The notes under the pieces: generated by a model
Told to the model about the DNA's origin: nothing
Seen by the model: the letters and a program-made list of their open reading frames with translations, nothing else
Database searches by the model: none
In this document: one piece after another, positions 23,684-56,877 of the stretch
Numbering within the stretch: position 1 is the stretch's first letter
How the letters are laid out: every line of letters begins with the position of its first letter
Origin: Escherichia coli O127:H6 str. E2348/69
GTDB taxonomy: Bacteria; Pseudomonadota; Gammaproteobacteria; Enterobacterales; Enterobacteriaceae
Strand: one strand, 5' to 3'
DNA length: 64,000 bases
Assembly: GCF_000026545.1 (NCBI RefSeq)
Contig: NC_011601.1
Position numbers and translations under genes: made by a program

Positions 23684-24241
23684 ATGTCTTATTCAGAAAT
23701 CGCCGCGTGTCTGGCATACGCGGTTTCCGTCTGGCTGGCTGCCAGAAACAATGTGCATACATGGTGGATCGGCATAATTGGCAGCATATTGTACGGCTGG
23801 GTTTTTTGGTCCGTGCAACTCTATGCCGACGTTACGCTCCAGTTATTCTTCATCGCGACCAGCATCACTGGCTGGATCCACTGGCTGAAAGGTCAGGGTG
23901 GCGACATCTTGCCGGTGCGCCGAACGCAAGCCTGTCACTTTTTCCTTTTGTTGCTCTGTGCTGTCGTCGTGGCAGGCGGTTACGGCTTTTTACTCCACAC
24001 CTTTACCAATGCCTGGGCACCCTGGCTGGATTCGTTGATTTTGACCTTTAGCGTTCTGGCACAATTCATGTTGATGGGAAGACGTATCGAAAACTGGTTC
24101 GTCTGGTTAGCGGTGAATACCTTGGCAGTGCCACTGTATATGACGCGCGGTTTAAACCTGACCGCTGGCTTATATTTCCTGTTCTGGATTAACGCCTGGC
24201 ATGGTTTGTATCAATGGCGCAAAGAGTTGCAAACATCATGA
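23684..24241 (+). CDS. PnuC-family nicotinamide riboside transporter-like membrane protein (185 aa)
   Basis: Small polytopic membrane protein with PnuC-like hydrophobic pattern; good RBS (GGGAGGG); stop overlaps the next gene start (ATGA); not pnuC proper. Confidence 0.7.
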   Translation: MSYSEIAACLAYAVSVWLAARNNVHTWWIGIIGSILYGWVFWSVQLYADVTLQLFFIATSITGWIHWLKGQGGDILPVRRTQACHFFLLLLCAVVVAGGYGFLLHTFTNAWAPWLDSLILTFSVLAQFMLMGRRIENWFVWLAVNTLAVPLYMTRGLNLTAGLYFLFWINAWHGLYQWRKELQTS

Positions 24242-25242
24242 AGCCTTTTGCAACGGGCCTGGTGGTTGGTAAATTCGCGCCTTTGCATTGTGGTCATGAA
24301 AAGTTGATCAATACCGCACTGGCGCAATGTGAAGAACTGTTCATCATCAGTTATTCCGTGCCGGAAATGCCTGACTGTGAACCTGAAAAGCGCCTGACGT
24401 GGCTGCAAGTGCGCTTCCCGCAAGCGACGATTTTGGTACTGACGCCAGAGCTTGTTGCGCGTTATAACTTACCTGCCATACCGCATAACGATGCCGATGC
24501 CGACATCCACCGTCATTATGTGGCGACGCTGTGCCTGCAGATATTACGCTGTCGTCCACATGCTGTATTTACTGCAGAAGACTATGGCGATGGCTTTGCT
24601 AACGTGCTGGCGCGGCGTTTTGCCCAACCCGTTGAACACGTTCGAATGGCGCGCCCAGTTGGCGATGAAGCGCCTTCGGGAACGCTTATTCGTTCCGATG
24701 TTCACCGCTATCGCTACATGTTGGCGAATGATGTTTATTACAGTTTCGTTCGCCGTATCTGTCTGCTTGGTGGCGAATCTACCGGTAAAAGCACGCTTTC
24801 AAAAGCGCTGGCGGATGGGCTTGATACGGTGTATGTCGCTGAATTTGGCCGCGACTATTGGGAAGAAAAAAACGGAATCTTAACCGCGGATGATTTGTTG
24901 CATATCGCCTGCGAACAGGTACGCCGGGAACAACAAGCAGAAGCTAATCACTATCTTATATGTGACACGTCGCCACTCACGACCTTGTTCTATGCCCTTG
25001 ATCAATATGGTCATGCTCCGCAAGAACTTCATCAACTGGCGGAGCGGGAATACTCTCTGGTGGTGCTTTGCGGCGCAGAATTTCCCTTCGTGCAGGATGG
25101 CACCCGGCAAGGAGAGGTATTTCGCGCACGGCAACAGGTGTGGTATGAACAGGAATTGTCGCGCAGGAACATTCCTTATCTTTCGGTTTCGGGGCCACTG
25201 CAAGAGCGAGTGGAGCAAATTCTTCGCCAACTTCCCGACTGA
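24214..25242 (+). CDS. NadR-like bifunctional NMN adenylyltransferase / ribosylnicotinamide kinase lacking the N-terminal HTH domain (start at 24214 or 24238)
   Basis: Nucleotidyltransferase motif GKFAPLHCGH (compare NadR GKFYPLHTGH) and P-loop GGESTGKST (NadR kinase domain Walker A); 333-342 aa versus about 410 for full NadR. Confidence 0.8.
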   Translation: MAQRVANIMKPFATGLVVGKFAPLHCGHEKLINTALAQCEELFIISYSVPEMPDCEPEKRLTWLQVRFPQATILVLTPELVARYNLPAIPHNDADADIHRHYVATLCLQILRCRPHAVFTAEDYGDGFANVLARRFAQPVEHVRMARPVGDEAPSGTLIRSDVHRYRYMLANDVYYSFVRRICLLGGESTGKSTLSKALADGLDTVYVAEFGRDYWEEKNGILTADDLLHIACEQVRREQQAEANHYLICDTSPLTTLFYALDQYGHAPQELHQLAEREYSLVVLCGAEFPFVQDGTRQGEVFRARQQVWYEQELSRRNIPYLSVSGPLQERVEQILRQLPD

Positions 25243-26698: not shown

Positions 26699-29443
26699 AT
26701 GGAGAACATGACCTCGCCCGGCACGCTGCTTAGTGGAGATAACGCGACCTGGCTTGAAGAGTACTACCAGACCTGGTTGCGTACGCCGGAAAAACTCCCG
26801 GAAGACTGGCGGCGTTTTTTTCTTTCACCTGAACTGACTGTCCAAAGCGTATCCGGTGATAACAACGTCAGCGGTGCGACGTTAAAAAAACAGGCTGCGG
26901 TAATACAACTGATCAATGCCTGGCGCACGCAGGGGCATCTGCGCGCAAAGCTTGATCCACTTGGTTTGAATCCCCCGGCTGACGTTCCCTCCCTCCAGCC
27001 TGGTTTTTGGGGATTAAGCGAAGAAGACTTGTTGCAGGAATTTAGCGTCACCTTTGGCGCACACACCACGCAAATGCCACTTAAGCAACTGCTTAACCTG
27101 CTAGAGCAAGCCTGGGCCGGTAGCCAGGCTTATGAACTTGCTCATCTGGAAAATCGTGAAGAAATCAACTGGTTGTTATCACGGATTGAGAGCAGCAATG
27201 CGCCACAAGCAGATGTACAAACCTGTATTGCTCGTTTTGAAAAACTGATGGCGGCAGAGACGTTAGAGCGTTATCTGCATACCCGTTATGTTGGGCAGAA
27301 ACGGTTTTCTCTGGAAGGGGGCGAAAGTGCAATCCCGGCGCTCGATACGCTGACAAAACGCCTGCGTGCGCAAGGTGTGGAGGAAATGGTCATTGGCATG
27401 GCGCACCGGGGAAGACTTAATGTTCTGGTTAATCTGTTGAATAAAGACCCGGCACAGCTTTTTGCTGAGTTTGAAGGCAAGCAGACGATCGGCAGTGGTT
27501 CAGGCGATGTGAAATACCACATGGGGTATTCCAGCAATCTGGAAACACCTGCCGGTTCGCTGCATGTGGCGCTGGCGTATAACCCCTCACATCTGGAGAT
27601 CGTGAATCCGGTGGTGCTGGGCCAGGTGCGAGCCAGGCAGGAACGCCGTGGTGAGGATGGTCAGGCAAAAGTGGTGGGCGTACTTATTCATGGGGATTCC
27701 GCGTTGGGCGGCCTCGGCGTCAACCAAACCACGTTTAACTTATCGCAGACTCAGGGCTACGGCACTGGCGGTACGCTACATCTGGTGATTAACAATCAGA
27801 TTGGCTTCACCACTTCCCGCTTGCAGGATATGCGTTCTTCACGGTACTGCACCGATATTGCCAAAATGGTAGCGGCCCCAATTATCCACGTTAATGGCGA
27901 TGACGTTGACGCTGTTTGCCAGGTAATGGAACTGGCGTGCGAATGGCGAGACACCTTCCGGCGCGACATCATCATCGATATTTGCTGCTTCCGTAAGCAC
28001 GGACACAACGAAAGCGATGAGCCACGTCTTACCCAGCCACAAATGTATCAGGCAGTGGATGCTCACCCTGGTACGCTCGCCCGTTATGGTGAATCTCTTG
28101 CCCGCCGCGGCCTGTTAACTCAGGCGCAACAAGATGAGATGACGGCACGCTATCGCGACTGGCTGGATAGCTGCCAGAAACGTGAACCGCAGCCTCTCAA
28201 ACCTGCAATTCACTCTTTTAGCGCTAACTGGTATGGGTTGACCAACCCTCACTGGAGCGCCCCGGTATCTACGGCATTGCCTCGGCAAAAGCTGGCAGCG
28301 TATGGTGAAATCATTTCTACACTGCCACCCGATGTGGTCGCACATCCTACCATTAAACGGCAACTGGCGTTACGCCAGGATATGGCCGCAGGTACTCAGC
28401 CAATAGACTGGGGAATGGCTGAAATGCTGGCCTATGCATCGCTTGTGGATGCGGGTGTTGGTGTGCGTCTTTCTGGTGAAGACTCAGGGCGTGGCACGTT
28501 CAGTCATCGCCATGCAGTGGTACATCATCAAACTGAAGCCCGTCGTTATCTGCCGTTACAGCATATCCGCGCTGGTCAGGCATCTTTCGATGTTTATGAT
28601 TCGGTGCTTAATGAAGAAGCGCTCTTAGCCTTTGAATATGGCTATTCAACGTCTGCGCCTCAGCAACTGGTTATTTGGGAAGCGCAGTTTGGTGACTTTG
28701 CCAACGGCGCTCAGGTTGCTATTGACCAGTTTATCTCGTCTGGCGAAACCAAGTGGGATCGCTATAGCGGTTTAACCATTCTTCTGCCGCATGGCTATGA
28801 CGGACAAGGGCCGGAGCACTCTTCTGCGCGTCCTGAGCGCTGGCTGCAACTGTGCGCAGAAAACAACATGCAGGTGGTGATGCCCAGTGAGTCAGCACAA
28901 ATGTTCCATTTGCTGCGCGGTCAGGCATTACGCCCAATGCGCAAACCGTTAGTGATAATGATGAGTAAGCGTTTACTTCGGTTTAAAGGCGCGATGAGCG
29001 AGCTTTCTGAATTTACTGATGGCGCTTATAAACCGGTAATCACCGATCCGCAATTGCATCAGCCCCAGAAAGTTAAGCGCGTTATTTTGTGTAGCGGCCA
29101 GGTCTATTACGACGTACTGGAAGCCCGTAAGCAGCGTGAGTGTGAAGATGAGGTAGCGATTGTTCGCCTGGAGCAACTCTACCCGTTCCCGGTCGCAGAA
29201 CTGAATGATGTTCTGGCGAGTTGGCCGAACTGCTGCGAATGGATTTGGTTGCAGGAAGAGCCAGAAAACCAGGGCGCGTGGCGGCAGATTCGTCATGAGC
29301 TGGCGGCACTGAAAATTAACACTCCTTACTGGCAGTATGCAGGCCGCCCGGCAGCGGCAGCTCCGGCGACGGGGTATGGGCGTGTACATAAACAACAAAT
29401 CGACGAATTTCTTGCTGCTGCGTTTGCAGATATTCAGCCATGA
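26699..29443 (+). CDS. 2-oxoglutarate dehydrogenase E1 component paralogue (SucA-like, 914 aa)
   Basis: Collinear similarity to SucA along the whole length (e.g. MAHRGRLNVLVN, GDVKYHMG, EAQFGDFANGAQV, LPHGYDGQGPEHSSAR); start moved to ATG 26699 downstream of the promoter motif and preceded by AGGAG. Confidence 0.9.
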   Translation: MENMTSPGTLLSGDNATWLEEYYQTWLRTPEKLPEDWRRFFLSPELTVQSVSGDNNVSGATLKKQAAVIQLINAWRTQGHLRAKLDPLGLNPPADVPSLQPGFWGLSEEDLLQEFSVTFGAHTTQMPLKQLLNLLEQAWAGSQAYELAHLENREEINWLLSRIESSNAPQADVQTCIARFEKLMAAETLERYLHTRYVGQKRFSLEGGESAIPALDTLTKRLRAQGVEEMVIGMAHRGRLNVLVNLLNKDPAQLFAEFEGKQTIGSGSGDVKYHMGYSSNLETPAGSLHVALAYNPSHLEIVNPVVLGQVRARQERRGEDGQAKVVGVLIHGDSALGGLGVNQTTFNLSQTQGYGTGGTLHLVINNQIGFTTSRLQDMRSSRYCTDIAKMVAAPIIHVNGDDVDAVCQVMELACEWRDTFRRDIIIDICCFRKHGHNESDEPRLTQPQMYQAVDAHPGTLARYGESLARRGLLTQAQQDEMTARYRDWLDSCQKREPQPLKPAIHSFSANWYGLTNPHWSAPVSTALPRQKLAAYGEIISTLPPDVVAHPTIKRQLALRQDMAAGTQPIDWGMAEMLAYASLVDAGVGVRLSGEDSGRGTFSHRHAVVHHQTEARRYLPLQHIRAGQASFDVYDSVLNEEALLAFEYGYSTSAPQQLVIWEAQFGDFANGAQVAIDQFISSGETKWDRYSGLTILLPHGYDGQGPEHSSARPERWLQLCAENNMQVVMPSESAQMFHLLRGQALRPMRKPLVIMMSKRLLRFKGAMSELSEFTDGAYKPVITDPQLHQPQKVKRVILCSGQVYYDVLEARKQRECEDEVAIVRLEQLYPFPVAELNDVLASWPNCCEWIWLQEEPENQGAWRQIRHELAALKINTPYWQYAGRPAAAAPATGYGRVHKQQIDEFLAAAFADIQP

Positions 29444-29475
29444 AAGGCGCACAAAAATAATAAGGAGAACATTTT

Positions 29476-30630
29476 ATGATCGAAATTACTGTCCCTGTAT
29501 TACCGGAATCTGTCACGGAAGGCACGCTGACAACCTGGTGTAAACAAGAAGGCGAGCACGTAAAACGCGATGATGTGATTGCCGAGCTGGAAACCGATAA
29601 AGTCATTCTGGAAATACCGGCCCCGCACGATGGCGTGTTAAGCAATATTATCGTCAGCGAAGGTAGCACGGTCACGTCCGCGCAACTGTTGGCGCATCTT
29701 AAGCCGCAAGCTGTCATAGAAGAAACCGTCACACCAGTCACCGAAACCCTGACGATGCCTTCCGCACGGCTGGAGGCACAGCGTAGTGGTGTCGAACTTG
29801 CTGACGTTGCGGGGAGCGGGAGAAATGGACGTATCCTGAAAGAGGATGTGCAGCGCGTTACTCCTGCACCAGCCATTCAGCCTGAACGGGTGGCGGAGAT
29901 CGCGCCAGCTAAACCCTTGACACCGGGTGCTCGTCAGGAACGTCGTGAGCCGATGTCGCGCTTACGTCAGCGAATTGCTGAGCGTCTGCTGGCTTCCCAA
30001 CAAAATAACGCCATTCTTACCACATTCAACGAAGTAAACATGCAGAGCGTGATGGATTTACGCGCCCGCTGGAAAGATCGTTTTGCCGAGAAGCACGGCG
30101 TGAAGCTGGGCTTTATGTCCTTCTTTGTTAAGGCCGTTACCCGGGCGCTGGAGCGCTTCCCTGTAGTGAATGCCAGCGTTGATGGTAACGAGATTATCTG
30201 GCGTGATTATTGCGATATCGGCATTGCAGTGAGCAGCAACCGCGGCCTGGTAGTGCCTGTGTTACGCAATGCGCAATCACTCTCTTTGGTGGAAATTGAA
30301 CGGCAAATTGCCGAATACGCCACACAGGCTCGCAATGGCAAATTGCCGCTGGAGGCGTTACAGGGCGGCACGTTCTCTATCACCAACGGCGGTACTTTTG
30401 GTTCGATGATGTCAACGCCAATCATTAACCCGCCGCAGTCGGCCATTCTTGGGATGCATGCCATCACGCCGCGCCCGGTCGCAGAAAACGGCCAGGTTGT
30501 TATTCGTCCCATGATGTACCTTGCTCTCAGCTATGACCATCGCATTATTGATGGGCAGGAAGCCGTTCAGACGCTGGTGGCAATACGCGAGCTACTGGAG
30601 TCACCGGAACAACTGTTGCTGGATCTTTAA
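29476..30630 (+). CDS. dihydrolipoamide succinyltransferase E2 paralogue (SucB-like, 384 aa)
   Basis: Lipoyl domain with ELETDKV lipoyl-lysine motif; catalytic domain with [12 protein letters not shown]. Confidence 0.9.
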
Positions 30631-30641
30631 GGAGAGCGCCA

Positions 30642-32060
30642 ATGAGTACAATTTTCGATGTGGCAGTTATGGGTGGTGGGCCAGGTGGTTACGTAGCGGC
30701 ACTGCGGGCTGCGCAGAATGGGCTTTCCGTAGTATGTATTGATGATGGTGTAAATGCTCAGGGCGAACCTTCGCCGGGCGGTACGTGCCTCAATGTCGGC
30801 TGTATTCCGTCAAAATCGTTGCTGCAATCTTCCGAACTGTACGCGCAAGTGCAGCATGAGGCGAGCATTCATGGCGTTAATGTTGACGGCGTATCTTTCA
30901 ATGCAGCTGCGATGATTCAACGTAAAGACGCCATAGTAAGCCGCCTGACAATGGGCATCGGTTTGCTGTTTAAGAAAAATAAAGTGAAGCACCTGTGCGG
31001 CCTCGCAACGTTAGAACATGCTCAGGATGAGATTTGGCAATTACGTGTAAACGATCAACAAATCCGCGCCCGTAATGTGGTGATTGCAACAGGTTCTCAG
31101 CCGCGTCAACTGCCTGGCGTTACCATTGATAATCAGCAAATTCTCGATAATCGCGGCGCCCTGGCGTTAACCGCTGTGCCGCCGCGTCTCGGTGTGATCG
31201 GCGCTGGCGTGATTGGCCTTGAACTGGGGTCTGTGTGGAATCGGGTCGGTTCAGACGTCACGTTGCTGGAGATGGCGCCAACGTTCTTGCCTGCACTGGA
31301 AGCTCGCCTGTCGAACGAAGTCCGTAAAGCAATGATTGCCAGTGGGATGAAAATGCAACTGGCAGTAGAGATTGAGGCTATTGAACAACGGGATGACGGT
31401 GTGCATGTGCGCTGGCGGCAGGGTGAGAAGCGAGAAGAAAGCCGCTTCGATAAATTAATTCTTGCCATTGGACGTGTACCGCGACTTTCTGGTGTCGATC
31501 TCGTGCAACTCGGTCTTGAAGCCGATAACCGTGGCGGTATTGCCGTCGATAACTTATGCCGTACCGGGAAAGCCGGGCTGTGGGCAATTGGTGATGTCGT
31601 GCGAGGGCCGATGCTGGCGCATAAAGCGATGGCTGAAGGTGTGGTGGTTGCTGATCAAATTGCCGGACTGGCGGTAGAGCCGATTAATTTTGCGCTGATC
31701 CCTTCGGTGATTTACACCCAACCGGAAGTTGCGTGGGTAGGGGAAAACGAGGCCTCACTGAAAGCCGCTGGCAGAGTCTTTAACAAAGGAAATTCTCTGT
31801 TTGCCGGTAACGGTCGCGCCTTAGCATTAGGCCAGGAAGGTGGGCGTTGCACGTTATACAGCGATAAACACACTGACCGCGTACTTGGCGGAGCGATTGT
31901 TGGCCCGCAGGCATCGGAGCTGATCAATGAAATTGCGCTGGCGATGACTTTTAGCGCCTCTGGCGAGGATATTGTCTGTGCGATCCATGCGCATCCGACA
32001 TTAAGCGAAGTCATCCACGAAGCAGCAATGGCCTTGAATAATAAAGCATTACACGGATAA
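30642..32060 (+). CDS. dihydrolipoamide dehydrogenase E3 paralogue (Lpd-like, 472 aa)
   Basis: FAD-binding GGGPGG, redox-active disulfide motif GTCLNVGCIPSK, C-terminal HAHPTLSE. Confidence 0.9.
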   Translation: MSTIFDVAVMGGGPGGYVAALRAAQNGLSVVCIDDGVNAQGEPSPGGTCLNVGCIPSKSLLQSSELYAQVQHEASIHGVNVDGVSFNAAAMIQRKDAIVSRLTMGIGLLFKKNKVKHLCGLATLEHAQDEIWQLRVNDQQIRARNVVIATGSQPRQLPGVTIDNQQILDNRGALALTAVPPRLGVIGAGVIGLELGSVWNRVGSDVTLLEMAPTFLPALEARLSNEVRKAMIASGMKMQLAVEIEAIEQRDDGVHVRWRQGEKREESRFDKLILAIGRVPRLSGVDLVQLGLEADNRGGIAVDNLCRTGKAGLWAIGDVVRGPMLAHKAMAEGVVVADQIAGLAVEPINFALIPSVIYTQPEVAWVGENEASLKAAGRVFNKGNSLFAGNGRALALGQEGGRCTLYSDKHTDRVLGGAIVGPQASELINEIALAMTFSASGEDIVCAIHAHPTLSEVIHEAAMALNNKALHG

Positions 32061-32081
32061 CACATACCACTGAGGGAATAT

Positions 32082-33251
32082 ATGAATTTACATGAGTATC
32101 AGGCCAAATCGTTACTGGCTGGCATGGGGATGCCGTGTCCAAAAGAGATAGCCATCCAACAGATTTCGCAACTGGCAGATGCCTGGCAACATATTGCTTG
32201 CCCGAGTAAAGGCGCGGTACTTAAAGCGCAGGTACATGCTGGTGGGCGCGGTAAAGCTGGCGGCGTAAAAGTGCTTAAGCAGCTGCCGGAAGCACAGGCT
32301 TTTGTACAGCAAATGTTGGGATCGCAACTGGTGACTTATCAGACCGGGCCAGAAGGACAGTATGTCAGCAGTATTTTACTGTGCGAAAACATTTATCCGG
32401 TACGCCAGGAACTCTATTTTGGCATGGTGGTGGATCGTGAAAGCCAGCGGGTCACGTTTATTGTCAGCCCGGAAGGTGGTGTGGAAATTGAAAAAGTCGC
32501 CCATGAGACACCGGAGAAAATCAGCAGTGTCAGCATTGATCCACTGACAGGCGTGCAGCCTTGCCATATCCGAGAAATGTTTGCTGTTCTGCAACTGGAA
32601 CACGGACTATTTGCTGCCTTTAGTCGCCTGGTTAATCAGGCGTGGAAAGCCTTTAACGAACTGGATTTTGCCCTGCTGGAAATTAACCCTCTGGTGTTGC
32701 GGGAAACGGGCGAATTTATGTGTGCAGACGCGAAAGTATCGCTGGATGATAACGCGCTGTATCGTCACCCGGAACTCCAGGTGCTACGTGATGAAACCCA
32801 GGAAGATCCACGCGAAAGCCAGGCAGCGAAGCTTGATCTTAATTATGTCTCGCTGGACGGAAATATCGGCTGCATGGTCAATGGTGCAGGGCTGGCTATG
32901 GCAACCATGGACATCATCAAGCTATACGGTGAACAACCCGCAAACTTCCTGGATGTTGGCGGTGGCGCAACCCAGGAGCGCGTCAGTGAAGCCTTTCGGC
33001 TGATTGTTTCCGACGGCAAAGTGAAAGCCATTCTGGTTAATATTTTTGGTGGGATTGTCCGTTGCGACATGATCGCCAGAGCCATTATTCATGCTCTGAA
33101 TGAGGCCCGTATCACCCTGCCTGTCGTGGTGCGTCTCTCCGGTAATAACGCTGCCGAAGGGCAGCGGTTACTGGCAGAAAGTGGCCTGACGGTGGAAGCC
33201 GTCAATTCTCTGGATGATGCCGCTAAACGCATCATTGCGTTACTGAATTAA
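32082..33251 (+). CDS. succinyl-CoA synthetase beta subunit paralogue (SucC-like, 389 aa)
   Basis: ATP-grasp N-terminus MNLHEYQAKSLL, collinear with SucC. Confidence 0.9.
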   Translation: MNLHEYQAKSLLAGMGMPCPKEIAIQQISQLADAWQHIACPSKGAVLKAQVHAGGRGKAGGVKVLKQLPEAQAFVQQMLGSQLVTYQTGPEGQYVSSILLCENIYPVRQELYFGMVVDRESQRVTFIVSPEGGVEIEKVAHETPEKISSVSIDPLTGVQPCHIREMFAVLQLEHGLFAAFSRLVNQAWKAFNELDFALLEINPLVLRETGEFMCADAKVSLDDNALYRHPELQVLRDETQEDPRESQAAKLDLNYVSLDGNIGCMVNGAGLAMATMDIIKLYGEQPANFLDVGGGATQERVSEAFRLIVSDGKVKAILVNIFGGIVRCDMIARAIIHALNEARITLPVVVRLSGNNAAEGQRLLAESGLTVEAVNSLDDAAKRIIALLN

Positions 33252-33263
33252 CAGGAGGTTAAG

Positions 33264-34136
33264 ATGAGCGTTTTGATCAACAAACACACGCGGGTACTGG
33301 TGCAGGGCATTACCGGCAAAAACGGCACATTTCATACAGAGCAGGCTATTGCGTATGGCACGCAGATTGTGGGTGGAGTGACGCCAGGTAAGGGCGGGCA
33401 ACGGCATCTGGATCGCCCGGTTTTTGATTCAATGAAAGAAGCGATGCGACAAACTGAGGCTGATGCCAGCGTGATTTATGTGCCTGCACCGTTTGTGCTG
33501 GATTCTGTTGTTGAGGCTATTGAAGCTGGCGTCAAATTGGTTGTGGTGATCACTGAAGGTGTACCGACACTGGATATGGTGAAAGTTCGTCGGCTGCTTG
33601 ACTGCCACCCGGATGTGCGGCTGATTGGGCCAAACTGCCCAGGAGTTATCACGCCGGGTGAGTGCAAAATCGGGATTATGCCTGGTGAAATCCACCGCCC
33701 AGGGCGTATTGGGATTGTTTCCCGCTCCGGTACATTAACCTACGAAGCTGTAGCGCAAACCACGGCGCTGGGACTTGGGCAATCCACCTGTATTGGTATT
33801 GGCGGCGATCCGGTTCCGGGGACTAACTTTATTGATGCGCTGCGTTTATTCGAAAATGATCCGCAAACAGACGCGGTAATTATGATCGGTGAAATTGGTG
33901 GTAATGCGGAAGAACGGGCCGCGGAATTTATTCGTCATGAAATGAATAAACCGGTCGTAGGTTATATTGCCGGTGTTACTGCACCAAAAGGAAAACGCAT
34001 GGGACACGCCGGAGCCATTATTTCTGGCGGTAGCGGCAGTGCGGAGGATAAATTCCGGGCGTTCGATAAAGCAGGCATGGCATGGACACGAAATCCAGCA
34101 TTACTTGGCGAAACGTTATGGAATGTTATTAAGTAA
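33264..34136 (+). CDS. succinyl-CoA synthetase alpha subunit paralogue (SucD-like, 290 aa)
   Basis: CoA-binding N-terminus, catalytic His region (GHAGAII) conserved. Confidence 0.9.
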
Positions 34137-34154
34137 TCCATAAATGAATATCAA

Positions 34155-34178
34155 GGGAGCATATCGCTCCCTTTTTTT
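34155..34178 (+). terminator. rho-independent terminator after the SucD-like gene
   Basis: GGGAGC-ATATC-GCTCCC stem-loop followed by T7. Confidence 0.7.
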
Positions 34179-34291
34179 ATCTGTGTGGTAAGGGAATCAT
34201 CTTTTAATAACTGTGCGGAAAACCGCGCATAAAATAAAAAGGATAAATAGCTAACTCATTAAATAACAAAGCGTTATTAAAAAATTAAAGA

Positions 34292-34307
34292 TGGCATAGC
34301 TCCTGCA
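34292..34307 (+). promoter_or_regulatory. second sigma-54 (-24/-12) promoter-like element, upstream of the transporter gene
   Basis: TGGCATAGCTCCTGCA: TGGCA at -24 and TGCA at -12 with canonical spacing, about 40 bp upstream of ATG 34348. Confidence 0.5.
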
Positions 34308-34347
34308 ATAGCCAGGCAGGTTTTTTATTTTTCACAATGAGGTGAAT

Positions 34348-35847
34348 ATGTCATCAATATCCCATGGCGCACCACAAAAGCGTCGAATTATCCCTAATCC
34401 CGGCCTGTGGTTGGCGATCATTGCCGGAATTATTATTACCCTTCTGCCACTGGGCGATACCTTGCCCGTCGCCGGACAAAATATGATCGCCATTCTGGTG
34501 TTTGCCATTATTGTCTGGATCAGCGAAGCGATGGATTACACCGCCAGTGCAATTGTTATTTCCGCACTGATTATCTTTATGGTTGGTTTTGCCCCGGATA
34601 TGAATCACCCGGACACGATCCTTGGCACCGCGAAAGCGCTGAAAATGACTCTGTCGGGTTTTTCTAATTCTGCTCTGGCGCTGGTGGCAGCAGCAATGTT
34701 TATCGCGGCGGCAATGACCATTACCGGGCTGGATAAACGCATTGCGCTGTTTACTATGTCGAAAATAGGTGCCAGCAGCCGCAGCATTATTATCGGTGCC
34801 ATTGTGGTGACCATCGTCCTGAGCCTGGTCGTACCCAGTGCCACTGCCCGTACGGCTTGCGTGGTGCCGATTATGATGGGGGTCATTGCGGCATTTAAGG
34901 TGGATAAACATTCACGTTTAGCGGCGTCAATGATGATTGTTATCGCCCAGGCGACCAGTATCTGGAAAGTTGGTATTCAAACTTCGGCGGCGCAAAACCT
35001 GCTTTCTATCGGTTTTATCAATAAAACTTTCGGCGCCGGGCATTCTGTCAGCTGGCTTGACTGGCTGTTAGCGGGCGCGCCCTGGAGCCTCACCATGTCG
35101 GTGATCCTCTATTTCCTCGCACGTAAATTGTTGCCGCCAGAAACGGAAGCTGTTGAAGGGGGGAGCGAGGCCATTAAAAAAGCACTCGCAGAGTTAGGGC
35201 CAACCACCGGTAAAGAAAAACGCTTGATCGGTATTTCGCTGTTGTTACTGCTCTTTTGGTCTACTGGCGGAAAATTGCACAGTATTGATACCACCTCTGT
35301 CACCCTTGCCGGACTGGCGATTATGTTGCTGCCAGGCATCGGTGTAATGAGCTGGAAAGAGGTCGAAAAACGTGTGCAGTGGGGCACGTTGCTTATGTTT
35401 GGTATTGGTATCAGCCTGGGGTCCACGTTGCTTGATACACAGGCAGCTTCATGGATGGCGAACTATGTGGTGAAAGGTTTTGGTCTCGATGGCTTGCCAT
35501 CATTAGCCATCTTCGCGATTCTCGCCGCTTTCTTGATAATCATTCACCTGGGGTTTGCCAGTGCCACTGCGCTAACTGCCGCATTGCTGCCCATCCTGAT
35601 TAGCCTGTTAAGCAGTCTGCCGCCAGAACTCGGCGTTAACCCGGTCGGCATGACCATTCTGCTCGCCTTCAGTGTCAGTTTTGGCTTCATCCTGCCGATT
35701 AACGCGCCACAAAATATGGTGTGTATGGGTACGGATACCTTCACGCCACGCCAGTTTACCCGTGTGGGACTGTACCTGACGGTGATCGGCTACCTGTTGT
35801 TGCTACTGTTTGCCGCCACCTGGTGGAAAATTTTAGGTCTAATGTGA
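34348..35847 (+). CDS. DASS/CitT-family dicarboxylate (anion) transporter (about 499 aa)
   Basis: Polytopic membrane protein with two-repeat architecture typical of the divalent anion:Na+ symporter / CitT family; start at ATG 34348 after RBS GAGGTG. Confidence 0.8.
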   Translation: MSSISHGAPQKRRIIPNPGLWLAIIAGIIITLLPLGDTLPVAGQNMIAILVFAIIVWISEAMDYTASAIVISALIIFMVGFAPDMNHPDTILGTAKALKMTLSGFSNSALALVAAAMFIAAAMTITGLDKRIALFTMSKIGASSRSIIIGAIVVTIVLSLVVPSATARTACVVPIMMGVIAAFKVDKHSRLAASMMIVIAQATSIWKVGIQTSAAQNLLSIGFINKTFGAGHSVSWLDWLLAGAPWSLTMSVILYFLARKLLPPETEAVEGGSEAIKKALAELGPTTGKEKRLIGISLLLLLFWSTGGKLHSIDTTSVTLAGLAIMLLPGIGVMSWKEVEKRVQWGTLLMFGIGISLGSTLLDTQAASWMANYVVKGFGLDGLPSLAIFAILAAFLIIIHLGFASATALTAALLPILISLLSSLPPELGVNPVGMTILLAFSVSFGFILPINAPQNMVCMGTDTFTPRQFTRVGLYLTVIGYLLLLLFAATWWKILGLM

Positions 35848-35858
35848 GGAAACCAACG

Positions 35859-36932
35859 ATGTCATTACAAATTGCTGTTGAAAAAGTGCGTTGGTTAGCT
35901 GCCGGGCTGCTGGAACTTAATGGCTGTGATGCCGATATCGCTCAGGATGTGGCGGAACATATGATTGAAGCGGAACGTTATGGTTTTGCCAGCCACGGCG
36001 TCACGCTGCTACCGAAATATCTGGAAAATATCGCTCGTGGCGATGTAACCGCGAATGCCCGCCCGGAATGCTTAACAAGTGAAGGTAATTTACAACGTTT
36101 TCATGCCCACAATGGCTTTGGTCAACACGCCGGAAAAGTGGCGGTAAATGCTGCCATCGAACAAACAAAACACCGCGGTTTTTGCCTGTTAACGTTGTGC
36201 CATGCGCATCATTTAGGGCGTATGGGGCATTACGGGCAAATGGTTGCTGATCAAGGCCTGGCGATGCTGGCCATGAGTAACGTCACCGGGCGTCCGGCAC
36301 TGGTCGCCCCGTGGGGCGGTGCGGAACCGCGTATGACCACTAACCCTTTCTGCTTTGCCTGGCCGTTCAGTGATGGGCGTCCGCCGATTCTGGTTGATTT
36401 TGCCACCAGTAGCATGGCGCTAAATAAAGCACGGGTAATGTCGTCCACCGGGAAGCAGGCCGCGCCGGGACAATTGATCGATGCACAGGGGAATCCAAGC
36501 AATGATCCTGGGGTGTTATTCAGCAATCCTCCAGGGGCGTTACTGCCATTTGGTGAGCATAAAGGATTTGGCCTGGCACTGATGATTGAAATGATGGCGG
36601 GGATCTTATCTGGTGGTGACACGATCGCCGAAGATCATCAGACGGATGGATCTGCGCATAATCATCTTTTTGCGTTGATTATCGATCCTGATCAATTCAC
36701 CGATCTGGCAGGGGAGAAAGGGCAGTTCTTTGCGGATTATCTGTTAGCTACGCAGCCTCAACCTGGCGGCAATCCGGTGATTTACCCCGGTATGCCAGAA
36801 GCTGCCAACCGGGAACGCAATGCGAAGATGATTACGATCCCGGTATCATTCTGGTCCTGGGTAGTTGAACATTACGCCCGCAAAGGTATCGATTTGGGGT
36901 TACATCCTCAGGAATCAGCATTAGCTGGATGA
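35859..36932 (+). CDS. Ldh_2-family (malate / L-lactate / sulfolactate type) NAD(P)-dependent 2-hydroxyacid dehydrogenase (357 aa)
   Basis: Family-typical segments (GxxSHG region GFASHG, EHKGFGLAL); start placed at ATG 35859 after RBS GAGGAAA, rejecting the upstream extension that overlaps the transporter. Confidence 0.8.
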   Translation: MSLQIAVEKVRWLAAGLLELNGCDADIAQDVAEHMIEAERYGFASHGVTLLPKYLENIARGDVTANARPECLTSEGNLQRFHAHNGFGQHAGKVAVNAAIEQTKHRGFCLLTLCHAHHLGRMGHYGQMVADQGLAMLAMSNVTGRPALVAPWGGAEPRMTTNPFCFAWPFSDGRPPILVDFATSSMALNKARVMSSTGKQAAPGQLIDAQGNPSNDPGVLFSNPPGALLPFGEHKGFGLALMIEMMAGILSGGDTIAEDHQTDGSAHNHLFALIIDPDQFTDLAGEKGQFFADYLLATQPQPGGNPVIYPGMPEAANRERNAKMITIPVSFWSWVVEHYARKGIDLGLHPQESALAG

Positions 36933-38279
36933 TTCTGGTCGATAAACTTGCGGTTGAATCTGATGTTTGTTGAGTTTGTCATATAAAGTCTTGCGCGGCA
37001 GCTGTAATAGCCGCGCTGTCAAACTGACCTGGCCTTCCGTTTGTCGCAGCATATCTTCGATTAACTTTTTCTCGAAAGCATCAATGCAGGCGGTAAGGCC
37101 ACTCTCTTCTTGCTGAGTCATTGGTACTGGCTGGTGGTGGGTCAGTAAACCGAGAACAAAACGCTCTGCATTGTGTTTAAGTTCACGTACATTGCCAGGC
37201 CAACTTTGTGACTGCAACCAGGCCAGTAACATGGGAGAAATATCAGGCAGAGGACGATTATATTTTTGTGCCGCCTGACTGGCGAACCAGTAAAACAGTT
37301 CAGGGATATCTTCTCGTCGTTGGCGTAGAGGTGGAATATTCAGGCTAACCACATTCAGACGATAATAGAGATCGAGACGAAACAGATGTTCTTCGCTGCG
37401 ACGCAGTAAATCTTCCTTGGTCGCTGCAATAACACGGCAATTCACCGGAATTAATTGATTGGCACCTAATCGTTCAATGGTTCTTTCCTGCAATACACGT
37501 AGCAGTTTTACCTGCATTCCTGATGGCATTCCCTCTATTTCATCGAGAAATAACGTACCACCATTTGCATGTTCAATTTTTCCAATACGCTTTTTAACCG
37601 CACCGGTAAATGCGCCCGCCTCATGACCAAATATTTCGCTTTCAAACAACGTTTCTGGTAAGCCTGCACAGTTTAAGGCAACAAACTGCCCCTGACGGCG
37701 GGTACTCCAGTGATGCAGCATTCTGGCGACGACTTCTTTACCACAACCTGTTTCACCATAAATAAGGACATCGGCACCGGTATCTGCGACATTAAGGATC
37801 ATTTTACGCAGTTGTTGCATCTGCGGACTACGACCAATCAGCACCGGGCCATTTTCCTGTTGCAGATTCGCCAGTAATTGCTGATTTTCTAAAACCAATC
37901 GCCGTTTTTCTACCGCTCTGGCAATAATACTCAATAATTTATCTGAGCTACTTGGTTTCTCAATGAAATCGAATGCACCATTACGCATGGCATCCACCGC
38001 CATTTCCACGTCACCGTGTCCGGTAATTAAAATAACCGGAATTTTGCTATCCATTTCGTTGATGTAACTGAGGAGCTCTAGTCCTGATATTCCAGGTAAC
38101 CTGACATCGGTCAGTATAATAATGTTGGCCTGACTTTGAATAAGGGGAATACTGTGTTCTGCATCGCAACAGGAAATAACACGATAACCAGCCAGCGTGA
38201 GCGTTTGTTCACAGGCAAAACGTACATCGTCACTATCCTCAATATAAACTATAGTAATTTCACTGGATTTATTATTCAT
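36921..38279 (-). CDS. kguR: sigma-54-dependent two-component response regulator (NtrC/DctD family, 452 aa)
   Basis: Receiver domain with phospho-acceptor Asp (IILTDVRLPG), AAA+ domain with Walker A GETGCGKE and the sigma-54 contact motif GAFTGA, C-terminal Fis-type HTH; gene name from memory of the UPEC KguS/KguR system. Confidence 0.85.
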   Translation of the reverse strand: MNNKSSEITIVYIEDSDDVRFACEQTLTLAGYRVISCCDAEHSIPLIQSQANIIILTDVRLPGISGLELLSYINEMDSKIPVILITGHGDVEMAVDAMRNGAFDFIEKPSSSDKLLSIIARAVEKRRLVLENQQLLANLQQENGPVLIGRSPQMQQLRKMILNVADTGADVLIYGETGCGKEVVARMLHHWSTRRQGQFVALNCAGLPETLFESEIFGHEAGAFTGAVKKRIGKIEHANGGTLFLDEIEGMPSGMQVKLLRVLQERTIERLGANQLIPVNCRVIAATKEDLLRRSEEHLFRLDLYYRLNVVSLNIPPLRQRREDIPELFYWFASQAAQKYNRPLPDISPMLLAWLQSQSWPGNVRELKHNAERFVLGLLTHHQPVPMTQQEESGLTACIDAFEKKLIEDMLRQTEGQVSLTARLLQLPRKTLYDKLNKHQIQPQVYRPESSS

Positions 38280-40092
38280 GTTCTTCTCCCCATTCAGGCC
38301 AGGTTAATGTCATTACTGCGCCGCCTTCAGGATGATTACTGGCGTGGAGTGCGCCGTTCGAATTTCGGACAATTTCGCTGACTATTGCCAGTCCCAACCC
38401 CATTCCTCTACGTTTAGTGGTAAAAAATGGTTCAAATATGCGATCGACAACTTCAGGTGCAAAACCGCCACCGCTGTCTTTAATGGTAATAATAACTTTG
38501 TTATTTGCCTGGCGAATGGCGATATCCAGTCGTTTGTAAGAGCTACCTTCCATAGAATCTAAGGCGTTGCTAATTAAATTACTGAATATCTGTTCAAGAC
38601 CGAGCTCATCGCAATTGACAAATAACGGCATGGATGGGGCTTTTATTCGTCGCTCAATATTATTTTTCTCCATGCTGTGATTAAGTAACGCCACGGCGCT
38701 ATACATCACTTTGATGACATCGGCAGAACCTTTAGGTACGCGATGGCGCGAGGCAAATGCTTTAAGTTCGGAAATGAGCTGCGTCATCCGCTCAATCACT
38801 GAAATAATGTGTTTCAGATTCTGTTCAACCTGCGGATACATCTCTTTTTTTAGCATAGTACGCGCGTTATCAGTAAGTGCGTGAATGGCGGCTAACGGTT
38901 GATTTTGTTCATGGGCAATTTCGGTTGCCATCTGTCCAAGCGCCGCCAGTTTGCTGGACTCTGCCAGTTCACTACGCGTAATTTGTAATACTTGTTCAGC
39001 CTGACTGCGCTCTTTTATCTCCTGTATTAATTTTTGATTGATCAATTCCAGGGCAGATGTACGCTCTTTAACCTGTTTCTCTAATGTTTCATTCGCCAGT
39101 GTTAATAATTGTTGTGCATGAGATCGCATTCTCCAGTATTTAATAAATAACAAAAACAGCAGGTAAATAATTAGCGTAATGACTAACGAAATAGCCCATG
39201 ACCAGTACAGGTTATCTAAGGGGACCATAATTGTCATTTTCCAGTTAAATTCTGGAATGGCTATTTGTTGCGTATAATATTGCGGGAATAAACAGAGTTG
39301 TTCTTTTTTATCTTTCAGGAAAGTAAAATTGCTCACGGTATAACAGGGATAATAATCCGCCGGTAAAAGATTGTCGAGACTATATTGGCGGGTAGATTGT
39401 AGTTTTTGTTTTGCCTGAACAGGTAACGGTTGCAGTGTTCGCATTCGCCATGGCGATTTTGAACTTAAAAATATAATCCCATGTTCATCATTCACGATAA
39501 TATTTTCAGGACCTTCGGCCCATGCTTTTTCAATTTCATTAAGACTTATTTTTACTACTACAACACCGACAATTTTTCCTTTATCTTTTATACTTGTAGA
39601 GAGGAAGAATCCCGGTGTATTCGTAGTGCTACCAATACCGTAAAAGCGTCCATTTAAGCCAGACATGGCGTGTTTATAATAGGGGCGATAGCTATAATTT
39701 TGCCCTACATAGCTGCCGGGGTCCTGCCAGTTGCTAGAAGCGATGGCCTTACCTTGGGTATCCAGAATAAATATTGCTGCGGTTTTGAGTTGAGTATTGA
39801 AATGTGCAATTCGTTGATTGAGTTCGCTGGACATCATATCGTCAGGCGTAATTACCGCCTGACGGATGATATGGTCTGTTGAGAGCATATAGGGTAAAAC
39901 ATAAAATTGCTCGATGGTGGAATATAATGTGGACTTATACATTTCAAGCCGCATTTTATCGGTACCGGACAAGGTATTAAAACGCAAGTGCAAAAAAGCG
40001 ATTGAAACCGCGAGCATGATAAGAAAAAGTGAAATGCTTGTAATGTGAAATCGCCATTTGTTCTTAAATATATAATTCCACGATATTTTCAT
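38272..40092 (-). CDS. kguS: periplasmic-sensing histidine kinase (DctB-like, 606 aa)
   Basis: Two transmembrane segments flanking a large periplasmic domain, H-box ATEIAHEQNQPL, ATP-binding G-boxes; 8-bp overlap with the regulator gene; gene name from memory. Confidence 0.85.
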   Translation of the reverse strand: MKISWNYIFKNKWRFHITSISLFLIMLAVSIAFLHLRFNTLSGTDKMRLEMYKSTLYSTIEQFYVLPYMLSTDHIIRQAVITPDDMMSSELNQRIAHFNTQLKTAAIFILDTQGKAIASSNWQDPGSYVGQNYSYRPYYKHAMSGLNGRFYGIGSTTNTPGFFLSTSIKDKGKIVGVVVVKISLNEIEKAWAEGPENIIVNDEHGIIFLSSKSPWRMRTLQPLPVQAKQKLQSTRQYSLDNLLPADYYPCYTVSNFTFLKDKKEQLCLFPQYYTQQIAIPEFNWKMTIMVPLDNLYWSWAISLVITLIIYLLFLLFIKYWRMRSHAQQLLTLANETLEKQVKERTSALELINQKLIQEIKERSQAEQVLQITRSELAESSKLAALGQMATEIAHEQNQPLAAIHALTDNARTMLKKEMYPQVEQNLKHIISVIERMTQLISELKAFASRHRVPKGSADVIKVMYSAVALLNHSMEKNNIERRIKAPSMPLFVNCDELGLEQIFSNLISNALDSMEGSSYKRLDIAIRQANNKVIITIKDSGGGFAPEVVDRIFEPFFTTKRRGMGLGLAIVSEIVRNSNGALHASNHPEGGAVMTLTWPEWGEEHE

Positions 40093-50934: not shown

Positions 50935-52584
50935 ATGGAAATCTTCTTCACCATACTGATAATGACCCTCGTGGTCTCGCTGTCCGGGGTGGTCACTCGT
51001 GTCATGCCCTTTCAGATCCCGCTTCCGCTTATGCAAATCGCCATCGGTGCGCTACTGGCGTGGCCGACGTTTGGTTTGCATGTGGAGTTTGATCCTGAAC
51101 TCTTTTTAGTCTTGTTTATCCCGCCGTTGCTGTTCGCTGATGGCTGGAAAACGCCGACCCGTGAATTTCTCGAACATGGGCGAGAGATTTTCGGCCTCGC
51201 GCTGGCGCTGGTGGTGGTCACCGTGGTCGGCATTGGCTTCCTTATTTACTGGGTGGTGCCGGGCATTCCGCTGATCCCCGCCTTTGCGCTGGCTGCGGTG
51301 CTTTCTCCGACCGATGCTGTAGCGCTCTCCGGGATTGTTGGCGAGGGGCGCATCCCGAAAAAAATCATGGGCATTTTGCAGGGCGAAGCGTTGATGAATG
51401 ACGCCTCCGGCCTGGTGTCGTTGAAGTTTGCCGTGGCAGTGGCGATGGGGACAATGATCTTCACCGTCGGCGGTGCGACGGTCGAATTTATGAAAGTGGC
51501 AATAGGCGGTATTCTCGCCGGTTTTGTGGTGAGCTGGCTGTATGGTCGCTCGCTGCGATTCCTCAGCCGCTGGGGCGGTGATGAACCCGCGACGCAGATC
51601 GTTCTGCTGTTCTTGCTGCCATTCGCTTCTTATCTGATTGCGGAACATATTGGCGTTTCCGGCATCCTCGCTGCGGTTGCCGCCGGGATGACCATCACCC
51701 GCTCCGGTGTGATGCGCCGTGCGCCGCTGGCAATGCGCCTGCGCGCAAACAGCACCTGGGCGATGCTGGAATTTGTCTTTAACGGCATGGTGTTCCTGCT
51801 GTTAGGTCTGCAGTTGCCGGGGATTCTGGAGACGTCGCTGATGGCGGCAGAAATCGACCCTAACGTCGAAATCTGGATGCTGTTTACCGATATTATTCTG
51901 ATATATGCGGCGCTGATGCTGGTCCGTTTCGGCTGGCTGTGGACGATGAAAAAGTTCAGCAACCGCTTCCTGAAGAAGAAGCCGATGGAGTTTGGTTCGT
52001 GGACTACACGAGAAATCCTGATCGCGTCTTTCGCCGGGGTGCGTGGGGCGATCACTCTGGCCGGTGTGCTCTCTATCCCGCTTCTCTTGCCGGATGGTAA
52101 CGTCTTCCCTGCGCGCTATGAGTTGGTGTTCCTGGCGGCTGGCGTCATTCTCTTCTCGTTGTTTGTCGGCGTGGTGATGTTGCCTATTCTGCTACAACAC
52201 ATAGAAGTCGCGGACCATTCGCAACAATTGAAAGAGGAACGTATTGCACGAGCGGCAACGGCAGAAGTGGCAATTGTGGCGATCCAGAAAATGGAGGAGC
52301 GTTTGGCGGCGGATACCGAAGAGAATATCGATAACCAGCTGCTCACAGAGGTTAGTTCTCGCGTCATTGGTAACCTGCGTCGTCGCGCCGATGGACGTAA
52401 TGATGTAGAAAGTTCAATCCTGGAAGAGAACCTGGAGCGTCGCTTCCGTCTGGCGGCATTGCGTTCTGAACGTGCTGAACTGTACCATCTGCGCGCCACG
52501 CGGGAGATCAGTAACGAAACGCTGCAAAAATTACTGCACGATCTCGATTTGCTTGAAGCGTTGCTGATTGAAGAGAACCAATAA
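50935..52584 (+). CDS. yjcE: CPA1-family Na+/H+ exchanger YjcE (549 aa)
   Basis: Polytopic membrane domain followed by a soluble C-terminal domain; matches YjcE. Confidence 0.9.
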   Translation: MEIFFTILIMTLVVSLSGVVTRVMPFQIPLPLMQIAIGALLAWPTFGLHVEFDPELFLVLFIPPLLFADGWKTPTREFLEHGREIFGLALALVVVTVVGIGFLIYWVVPGIPLIPAFALAAVLSPTDAVALSGIVGEGRIPKKIMGILQGEALMNDASGLVSLKFAVAVAMGTMIFTVGGATVEFMKVAIGGILAGFVVSWLYGRSLRFLSRWGGDEPATQIVLLFLLPFASYLIAEHIGVSGILAAVAAGMTITRSGVMRRAPLAMRLRANSTWAMLEFVFNGMVFLLLGLQLPGILETSLMAAEIDPNVEIWMLFTDIILIYAALMLVRFGWLWTMKKFSNRFLKKKPMEFGSWTTREILIASFAGVRGAITLAGVLSIPLLLPDGNVFPARYELVFLAAGVILFSLFVGVVMLPILLQHIEVADHSQQLKEERIARAATAEVAIVAIQKMEERLAADTEENIDNQLLTEVSSRVIGNLRRRADGRNDVESSILEENLERRFRLAALRSERAELYHLRATREISNETLQKLLHDLDLLEALLIEENQ

Positions 52585-52666
52585 CGCTTTGGCGGTGTAA
52601 TCGGTAAAAAGGTGCAGTACATCGCACCTTTTTACCGTTGGTCAGGTGAGCAGAGGCTAGCGGAGA

Positions 52667-54627
<1,961 letters not shown>

Positions 54628-54918: not shown

Positions 54919-56877
54919 TTACGATGGCATCGCGATGGCCTGCTTCTCTTCAAGCAGCTTCTCGACTACGCCAGGATCGGCAAGCGTCGAGGTATCGCCC
55001 AGGTTGCTGGTATCGCCCGCCGCAATTTTGCGCAGAATACGGCGCATAATTTTGCCGGAGCGGGTTTTAGGCAGGGAGTCGGTCCAGTGCAGCACGTCTG
55101 GCGTCGCCAGCGGGCCAATCTCTTTACGCACCCAGTTGCGGACTTCTGCGTACAGTTCTGGTGACGGTTCCTCCCCGTGATTAAGCGTGACGTAGGCGTA
55201 GATCGCCTGACCTTTAATATTGTGCGGAATACCGACCACAGCGGCTTCGGCAATTTTCGGATGCGCCACCAGCGCCGACTCAATCTCTGCCGTCCCCAGG
55301 CGGTGACCGGAGACGTTCAGCACGTCGTCAACGCGCCCGGTGATCCAGTAATAGCCATCTTCATCGCGACGCGCGCCGTCGCCGCTGAAATACATATTTT
55401 TGAAGGTGGAGAAGTAGGTCTGCTCAAAACGTTCGTGATCGCCAAACAGCGTACGCGCCTGACCCGGCCAGGAGTCGGTGATCACCAGACTGCCTTCGGT
55501 GGCCCCCTCCAGCGGGTTACCTTCGTTATCGACCAGCGCTGGTTGCACGCCGAAGAACGGACGTGTTGCCGAACCGGCTTTCAGCTCGGTAGCGCCAGGC
55601 AGTGGCGTGATCATGAAACCGCCAGTTTCGGTCTGCCACCAGGTGTCGACCACCGGGCATTTCTCGTTGCCGATCTTCTTCCAGTACCACTCCCACGCTT
55701 CCGGGTTAATTGGCTCGCCCACGGAACCGAGAATGCGCAGCGACGAACGGTCGGTGCCTTCGATCGCTTTATCGCCTTCCGCCATCAGCGCGCGAATCGC
55801 CGTGGGCGCGGTATAGAGAATATTGACCTGATGCTTGTCCACCACTTGCGCCATACGGGCAGGCGTCGGCCAGTTCGGTACGCCTTCAAACATCAGCGTG
55901 GTCGCGCCGCAGGCCAGCGGGCCATACAGCAAATAACTGTGTCCGGTAACCCAGCCCACATCGGCGGTGCACCAGTAGATGTCGCCCGGATGATAATCAA
56001 AGACATATTTAAAGGTCAGCGCCGCGTACACCAGATAACCGCCGGTAGTGTGCAGCACGCCTTTTGGCTTACCGGTAGAACCGGAGGTATAGAGAATAAA
56101 CAGCGGGTCTTCGGCGTTCATCTCTTCCGCCTGGTGCTGATCGCTCGCTTGCTCAACCAGGTCGTGCCACCACAGGTCGCGCCCTTCCTGCCAGTCAATT
56201 TTCCCGCCAGTACGCTTCAGTACCACCACATGCTCTACGCTGGTGACGTTCGGGTTTTTTAGTGCGTCATCGACGTTTTTCTTCAGTGGAATGCTGCGCC
56301 CGGCACGCACACCTTCGTCGGAAGTGATCACCAACCGTGAGTTGGAATCGATAATGCGTCCGGCAACGGCTTCCGGCGAGAAGCCGCCGAAAATTACCGA
56401 ATGCACCGCGCCAATGCGGGCGCAGGCCAGCATCGCGACCGCGGCTTCCGGCACCATCGGCATATAAATCGCCACCACATCACCTTTTTTAATGCCCAGC
56501 TCGAGCAGGGTATTGGCGAAGCGGCAGACGTCGCGGTGCAGCTCTTTATAGCTGATATGTTTGCTCTGGCTGGCGTCGTCGCCTTCCCAGATGATGGCGG
56601 TACGATCGCCGTTTTCTTGCAGATGGCGGTCAAGGCAGTTTGCCGCCAGATTCAGCGTGCCGTCCTCGTACCATTTAATGGACACATTACCGGGGGCAAA
56701 GGAGGTGTTTTTCACCTTCTGGTACGGTGTGATCCAGTCGAGAATTTTTCCCTGTTCGCCCCAGAAGGTATCTGGTGCGTTAATAGATTGTTGATACATC
56801 GCCTCGTACTGCTGAGGGTTTATCAGGCAACGGTCTGCGATGTTGGCAGGAATGGTGTGTTTGTGAATTTGACTCAT
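54919..56877 (-). CDS. acs: acetyl-CoA synthetase Acs (652 aa)
   Basis: Translation matches Acs; AMP-binding motif [11 protein letters not shown]. Confidence 0.95.

Follow-up and report, generated by a model that had tools for sequence, protein, structure and literature searches.

In Escherichia coli O127:H6 str. E2348/69 the genes yjcE and actP face each other across a short spacer, and the pentapeptide-repeat gene yjcF, which occupies this position in K-12, is missing. The question raised by this locus is whether yjcF was recently deleted from the strain or whether the gene-free junction has an older history of its own. The stretch analysed here, referred to as the window, is 64 kb of the chromosome of E2348/69, the prototype strain of EPEC O127:H6; it matches the reverse complement of NZ_CP059840.2 (4488264..4552263) at 64000 of 64000 bases. 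The reading favoured in this study, at a probability of roughly 85%, is that E2348/69 holds, at a site with three common versions in E. coli, the one that carries no cargo, that this is an old allele most likely gained by replacement, and that the hairpin left between the two genes is likely their shared terminator.

The yjcE-actP junction in E2348/69 and in K-12

The junction and its neighbours comprise the following features (window coordinates).

50935..52584, plus strand: yjcE, Na+/H+ antiporter family, 549 aa, the left flank (open reading frame list and RefSeq annotation)
52572..52584, plus strand: last 13 bp of yjcE, switch from GAGGAAAATCAGTAA (B2 LysR-LrgAB strain) to GAAGAGAACCAATAA (empty type, strain D10)
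52585..52666, no strand: convergent intergenic spacer of 82 bp, the empty allele of the yjcE-actP site
52602..52637, no strand: hairpin CGGTAAAAAGGTGC-AGTACATC-GCACCTTTTTACCG, a 14-bp perfect inverted repeat with an 8-nt loop
52640..52666, minus strand: last 27 nt before the actP stop, putative decayed remnant of the actP terminator (position-anchored identity)
52667..54316, minus strand: actP, cation/acetate symporter, 549 aa, the right flank (open reading frame list and RefSeq annotation)
54313..54627, minus strand: yjcH (DUF485), upstream gene of the acs-yjcH-actP cluster (RefSeq annotation)
54919..56877, minus strand: acs, acetyl-CoA synthetase, first gene of the acs-yjcH-actP cluster (open reading frame list and RefSeq annotation)

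On the plus strand yjcE closes with the stop codon TAA, whose last base is 52584; actP lies on the minus strand, and its stop codon appears in reverse complement as TTA from 52667 onwards. The spacer between the convergent genes is exactly 82 bp, and the acs-yjcH-actP cluster ends at it. A sequence-only reading of the locus had described this layout, with a single hairpin including AGGTGC..GCACCT, and both the coordinates and the folding results given below agree with it. It had also placed a pentapeptide-repeat gene at this site in K-12, correctly: the order in MG1655 is yjcE (b4065), yjcF (b4066, minus strand, annotated as 'pentapeptide repeat-containing protein YjcF') and actP (b4067), and the 430-aa YjcF matches PF13599 and PF00805 (Pentapeptide_4 and Pentapeptide domains).

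From the stop of yjcE to the stop of actP, MG1655 holds 1623 bp, made up of a 153 bp spacer, the 1293 bp of yjcF and a 177 bp spacer. When the window junction was compared with MG1655 by BLASTN, yjcE was aligned through its stop codon at 94.9% identity, the alignment restarted 4 nt before the actP stop at 93.4% identity, and between the two stops only a short match at the hairpin was found. Since the homology ends at the yjcE stop and restarts near the actP stop, the same 82-bp junction, which the earlier reading had named as the result that would overturn it, does not occur in MG1655. The last 1600 bp of yjcE are 96.9% identical between the window and K-12, and actP is 95.8% identical over 1600 bp. 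With K-12 YjcF as the query, the best tblastn match in the whole 64-kb window had E = 3.3; together with the breaks of the alignment at both stops, this bears out the earlier statement that yjcF is missing between yjcE and actP. Searches of the window by tblastn with LysR, LrgA and LrgB gave no matches at E <= 1e-3 either.

The K-12 locus resembles that of E2348/69 in having the same convergent flanking genes and a homologous palindrome just downstream of yjcE. It differs in an additional block of about 1.5 kb (33-34% GC) carrying yjcF and in an intact actP terminator. The GC content of yjcF itself is 32.9%, compared with 55% in the flanks. YjcF orthologs of at least 87% identity for which a source is named are all labelled E. 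coli, and the next-best matches are cyanobacterial pentapeptide proteins at about 25% identity. From its composition and distribution, yjcF is a derived, foreign-looking gene restricted to E. coli. Around the K-12 gene no flanking direct or inverted repeats of the mobile-element kind were found, only a 27-nt palindrome.

The usual name given to yjcF by PGAP is 'espX5: T3SS effector pentapeptide repeat protein EspX5', which places it in the EspX family (EspX1-7 of EHEC O157 Sakai) of pentapeptide-repeat type III secretion effectors; in E2348/69 the espX5 gene is simply missing at the yjcE-actP site. Because of this label, virulome screens score the locus as a virulence-gene difference between phylogroups. 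The absence of yjcF from E2348/69 was already known. The entries for EspX genes in Table 2 of PMC7772469, which cites Wong et al. 2011, are 7 (1 pseudogene) in EHEC Sakai versus 0 in EPEC E2348/69, and espX5 with other esp genes was reported in most lineages and as absent from B2 ST131, ST12, ST73, ST127 and ST95 (PMC8844930). The lack of yjcF here is an ordinary lineage difference that has been documented before; the missing gene is a lineage-level difference in gene content, already entered in effector and virulome tables, and neither an error nor a new event.

Three versions of the site and its ancestral occupant

The sample consisted of 5426 complete E. coli genomes, of which 5420 carried the flanks. 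The yjcF allele was present in 4118 genomes, a cassette of LysR, LrgA and LrgB in 1038, and the empty allele in 264 as judged by contiguous flanks (262 by a junction-only query). As 4118, 1038 and 264 sum to 5420, three mutually exclusive alleles cover essentially every genome. Empty junctions 97-98% identical to that of the window occur in 259 other genomes, IAI39, ECONIH1 and APEC O78:H4 strains among them, and an identity of at least 99% was reached in three complete genomes only. In IAI39, D10 and APEC O78:H4 the empty junction is built like that of E2348/69, with the yjcE stop, the hairpin, a decayed actP terminator and the actP stop. As for phylogroups, we take E2348/69, ST131 and ST95 to belong to B2, IAI39 to F and ST117 O78:H4 to G.

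Two unusual arrangements were also observed. In strain Res13-Lact-PEB21-38-A (L085:3001-3997) an IS1 element stands in place of yjcF, save about 34 bp, and in strain FP4 (L086:2733-3242) a deletion has fused the beginning of yjcE with the last part of lrgB, giving a yjcE'-'lrgB fusion ORF. Both rearrangements are independent and recent.

The cassette is well represented by strain 2022H048, in which genes of the LysR regulator, CidA/LrgA and LrgB families occupy the site between flanks near-identical to those of the window. It is 2.1 kb long and of native composition (50-53% GC); its LysR protein comes closest to the CidR model, with a score below the cut-off, and the partner proteins match the LrgA and LrgB families. 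The CidR-like LysR gene and the LrgA/LrgB pair are divergently transcribed (L002:1886-3966; also L006 and L009-L084, downstream of yjcE). Compared with the window, the cassette allele (for example in 2022H048, JJ2434, ST95-32, E. whittamii and most Enterobacteriaceae) has the same site and the same gene orientation; it differs in the 2.1-kb insert and in the hairpin on the yjcE side, which is GGTTGGCGGGC..GCCCGCCAACC.

Outgroups were scanned with YjcE, one genome per species, and the best 80 of at least 550 loci were compared, a set without E. fergusonii, E. marmotae, Salmonella or an E. coli representative. In most of these best 80 loci LysR-LrgA-LrgB lies between yjcE and actP, its holders including Citrobacter, Enterobacter, Klebsiella, Raoultella, Kluyvera, Cedecea, Mixta, Erwinia and E. 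whittamii, and yjcF was found at the site in none (0/80 among the best 80 of at least 550). Because most other members of the Enterobacteriaceae and Erwiniaceae in the sample carry the cassette here, it is the ancestral occupant, and K-12 is not the ancestral reference at the yjcE-actP site. In annotation, the LysR-LrgAB cassette rather than the K-12 state should serve as that reference. The cassette adjoins the acetate genes acs-yjcH-actP; it has been lost from K-12 and kept in 1038 of the 5426 E. coli genomes. Neither the three-allele site nor its LrgAB occupant was found described in the literature; both are regarded here as ordinary facts of the pan-genome.

A gene-free spacer of 70 bp between yjcE and actP was also observed in Klebsiella indica (L025:8648-8717). 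Its sequence is unrelated to the empty alleles of Escherichia, so LysR-LrgAB was probably lost there independently.

The hairpin and its putative role in termination

The arms of the hairpin in E2348/69 lie at 52602-52615 and 52624-52637 and contain the core GGTGC/GCACC. This core is flanked by A5 (52606-52610) and T5 (52629-52633), so that each strand reads GCACC-UUUUU-ACCG, and the stem begins 17 nt past the yjcE stop and 29 nt past the actP stop. The fold energy of the 41-nt hairpin region is -22.6 kcal/mol for the plus and -23.5 kcal/mol for the minus strand, with z = -8.2 and -7.7, respectively, and 0/200 shuffles were equally stable. Three features of a bidirectional terminator are present, i.e., a stable GC-containing stem-loop, a U-tract on both strands and convergent stops nearby. 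As a GC core flanked by A5 and T5 supplies a stem plus UUUUU on each strand, just as in a bidirectional intrinsic terminator, this hairpin is most likely a Rho-independent terminator shared by yjcE and actP.

Several points stand against a terminator role. The T-run lies inside the extended stem, and the GC core alone (GGUGC/GCACC, 5 bp with the 8-nt loop) reaches only about -7 kcal/mol, -7.0 and -7.5 kcal/mol on the two strands. A scan of 52300..52950 for consensus promoters and terminators called zero sites; the scanner probably missed the hairpin because its T-run is absorbed into the extended stem. With that scan empty, the terminator reading draws on folding and on what the sequence itself shows. 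No family was returned when 52400..52850 was searched against Rfam at E <= 1.

The hairpin belongs to a palindrome that is shared between the empty and the yjcF alleles. The left 53 nt of the spacer show a significant resemblance to the first 61 nt downstream of K-12 yjcE (local score 33 over 35 nt; shuffle maximum 26-27), and the spacer of E. albertii aligns to K-12 positions 1-69 with a score of 68. The palindrome of K-12 has 27-nt arms of 85% complementarity, that of Escherichia sp. MOD1-EC7003 (L008) is full-length with a long imperfect stem, and the longest and most perfect one, a 28-bp stem without mismatch, occurs in L089, a divergent yjcF allele. Compared with K-12, the type found in the window, in D10 and in L007 (a genome labelled E. 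coli that represents a separate species) lacks 15 bp of the 5' arm through a deletion, so that a stem of 14 bp remains. The core of the stem does not vary among the alleles. One base pair is A-U in K-12, G-C in L008 and E. albertii, and A·C in the window type, and the alternation between A-U and G-C reads as a compensatory change at this pair. The palindrome is missing from every LysR-LrgAB allele.

The palindrome of L089 (GCA_053080185.1; L089:5371-5460, minus strand) lies downstream of yjcE and folds at -53 kcal/mol with z = -11; the YjcF protein of this genome is 90% identical to that of K-12, and its flanks are 95-97% identical to those of the E. coli compared. In the imperfect palindromes of K-12 and L008 the outer-stem changes are apparently compensatory. 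Another small difference concerns the first 10 nt or so past the yjcE stop (window 52585-52596 compared with L001:5631-5642): K-12, L089 and E. albertii have GCCGAAAGCG there, and the window, like D10 and L008, has CGCTTTGGCG. Since CGCTTTGGCG and GCCGAAAGCG are nearly reverse complements, a tiny inversion between the allele types is suggested.

Whether the palindrome is a dispersed repeat was considered as well, and this was ruled out, the K-12 palindrome being single-copy and found in essentially the yjcF-bearing genomes (4119). A metagenome scan with the hairpin pattern, which proved to be generic, gave 120 loci, for the most part unrelated terminators; five were yjcE loci, and 5/5 of these carried yjcF. 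No intermediate allele was found among the 120.

The right half of the spacer holds a possible trace of an older terminator. The ancestral actP terminator region, CCCCGGTC-AGAC-GACCGGGG-AAGGGGAGAGA, is intact in K-12 and in the LysR-LrgAB alleles. In comparisons anchored by position, the window is identical to it at 15-16 of 27 nt (p = 0.003-0.016, shuffle test) and L008 at 20 of 27 (p < 0.001, shuffle test); when the right half was aligned locally, free of any anchor, to the inserts of K-12 and of the LysR-LrgAB alleles, the similarity was not significant. Two substitutions in this part, at 52650 (G) and 52661 (C), are private to E2348/69, and the first of them weakens a small second hairpin (TGGTCA..TGACCA) present in D10, L007 and L008. 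Once yjcF or the cassette was gone, yjcE and actP would have faced one another across a single hairpin, which may have taken over the termination of actP while the original terminator decayed. Such a takeover agrees with the decayed state of the original actP terminator in every empty allele.

History of the empty allele and other differences in the window

The empty allele is not confined to typical E. coli. L007 has an 82-bp spacer of the same type as the window, between flanks 92-94% identical to those of the window, and L008 has a 97-bp version. The spacer of E. albertii (L005) is also empty and 82 bp long, with a different structure, its left segment being like that of K-12 and its right segment shorter. 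All three follow the order seen in E2348/69, with the hairpin and a decayed actP terminator between the two stops. From this distribution, the empty allele in E2348/69 is old and was inherited or recombined; it is not a fresh deletion scar.

How the empty allele arose from the LysR-LrgAB state can be explained in two ways, which fit the data about equally well, and each of which we hold only tentatively. One possibility, perhaps somewhat short of an even chance, is that the empty allele was an intermediate: LysR-LrgAB was lost in an early Escherichia lineage, with the palindrome and the actP terminator left behind, and yjcF entered between these two at a later time in the E. coli lineage, in which case strains like E2348/69 never held yjcF at this site. 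The other, which we would rate no higher and no lower, is that yjcF came first: one old event put yjcF, with the palindrome as its terminator, in the place of LysR-LrgAB, and a later deletion of the AT-rich yjcF block produced the empty allele, which then spread by descent and recombination.

The distribution of yjcF speaks for the empty allele having preceded it. Orthologs with a named source are all labelled E. coli, none was seen in the best 80 of at least 550 outgroup loci (0/80), and empty alleles are also found in E. albertii, L007 and L008. An earlier arrival of yjcF would require the gene to be older than the split of E. coli and E. albertii, or the empty allele to have crossed between species. 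The composition of the site points the same way: the segment that the empty alleles have in common with the yjcF alleles is about 50% GC, with the AT-rich block beginning immediately beyond it, the 82 bp hold no remnant of the AT-rich DNA flanking yjcF, and mobile-element repeats around yjcF were not found.

The state of the actP terminator, on the other hand, favours the arrival of yjcF before the empty allele. The yjcF alleles keep an intact terminator together with upstream bases like the sequence downstream of lrgB, and their right junction joins ancestral sequence directly, whereas the empty alleles have only the decayed form and none with an intact terminator was found. As every extant empty allele is decayed, an empty intermediate needs an additional, shared step of decay, while two events suffice if yjcF came first. 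The palindrome also reaches its greatest length and perfection in a yjcF allele (28 bp, L089) and occurs in no LysR-LrgAB allele. In both K-12 and L089 the yjcF strand (TTTTTCAG) has a better U-tract after the hairpin than the yjcE strand (TTTAAC). Moreover, independent recent deletions at the site do occur, as in the IS1 allele of L085 and the yjcE-lrgB fusion of L086.

A fuller account of the locus, which we consider possible but would not back at even odds, is that the three-allele site is old in the genus Escherichia and has been kept or exchanged across species since about the split of E. coli and E. albertii, with a short-patch swap in E2348/69 and a takeover of termination by the palindrome.

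The evidence for the swap comes from the flanks. Compared over 1600 bp to either side, they match those of 2022H048, a B2 strain with LysR-LrgAB, at 99.6% (yjcE) and 99.4% (actP) identity; with D10, a strain of the empty allele, the identity is only about 97%. Within yjcE, as far as 52564, the window has the base of 2022H048 at every site that distinguishes D10, and at four synonymous sites in 52572..52581 it is of the D10 type. The stretch 52572..52584 is likely the left edge of an allele-replacement patch. Because 2022H048 and D10 are identical for about 430 bp on the actP side, the right recombination boundary cannot be placed. Most likely, the cassette allele of E2348/69 was swapped for the empty allele by homologous recombination over a short patch. 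With the right-hand boundary unplaced, a less probable alternative is that the empty allele in E2348/69 is an ancestral polymorphism retained within B2.

A recent loss of yjcF, specifically in E2348/69 or its laboratory lineage, is very improbable. The exact spacer (at least 99% identity) does occur in three complete genomes only, and two substitutions are private to the strain. However, a junction of 97-98% identity is present in 259 other genomes and one of the same type in L007, the nearest flanks are those of a LysR-LrgAB strain and not of a yjcF strain, and just a part of the spacer aligns to the K-12 allele; the spread of the junction, the flanks and this partial alignment effectively refute such a deletion. 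Still less credible is an artefact of the assembly or of the window, with the region collapsed or mis-joined, and it was rejected, as the 64 kb are identical to a finished RefSeq chromosome and the junction recurs in 262 independent complete genomes.

Elsewhere in the window several other features were noted. Between tyrB and aphA (26699-40092) the annotation gives a second 2-oxoglutarate dehydrogenase set (E1, odhB and lpdA) and sucC/sucD, together with a DASS transporter, an Ldh-family oxidoreductase and a pair of sensor kinase and sigma-54 regulator genes. This cluster resembles what we take to be the KguS/KguR island for alpha-ketoglutarate utilisation of uropathogenic strains, presumably not present in K-12. 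The gene of an IS4-like ISEc13 transposase (8135-9508) lies between malM and lamB in the maltose regulon region, and qorA (NADPH:quinone reductase, 20043-21031) is annotated as a frameshifted pseudogene. Between alr and tyrB (23684-25242), where K-12 presumably has no genes, the window carries pnuC (nicotinamide riboside transporter) and an AAA-family ATPase gene.
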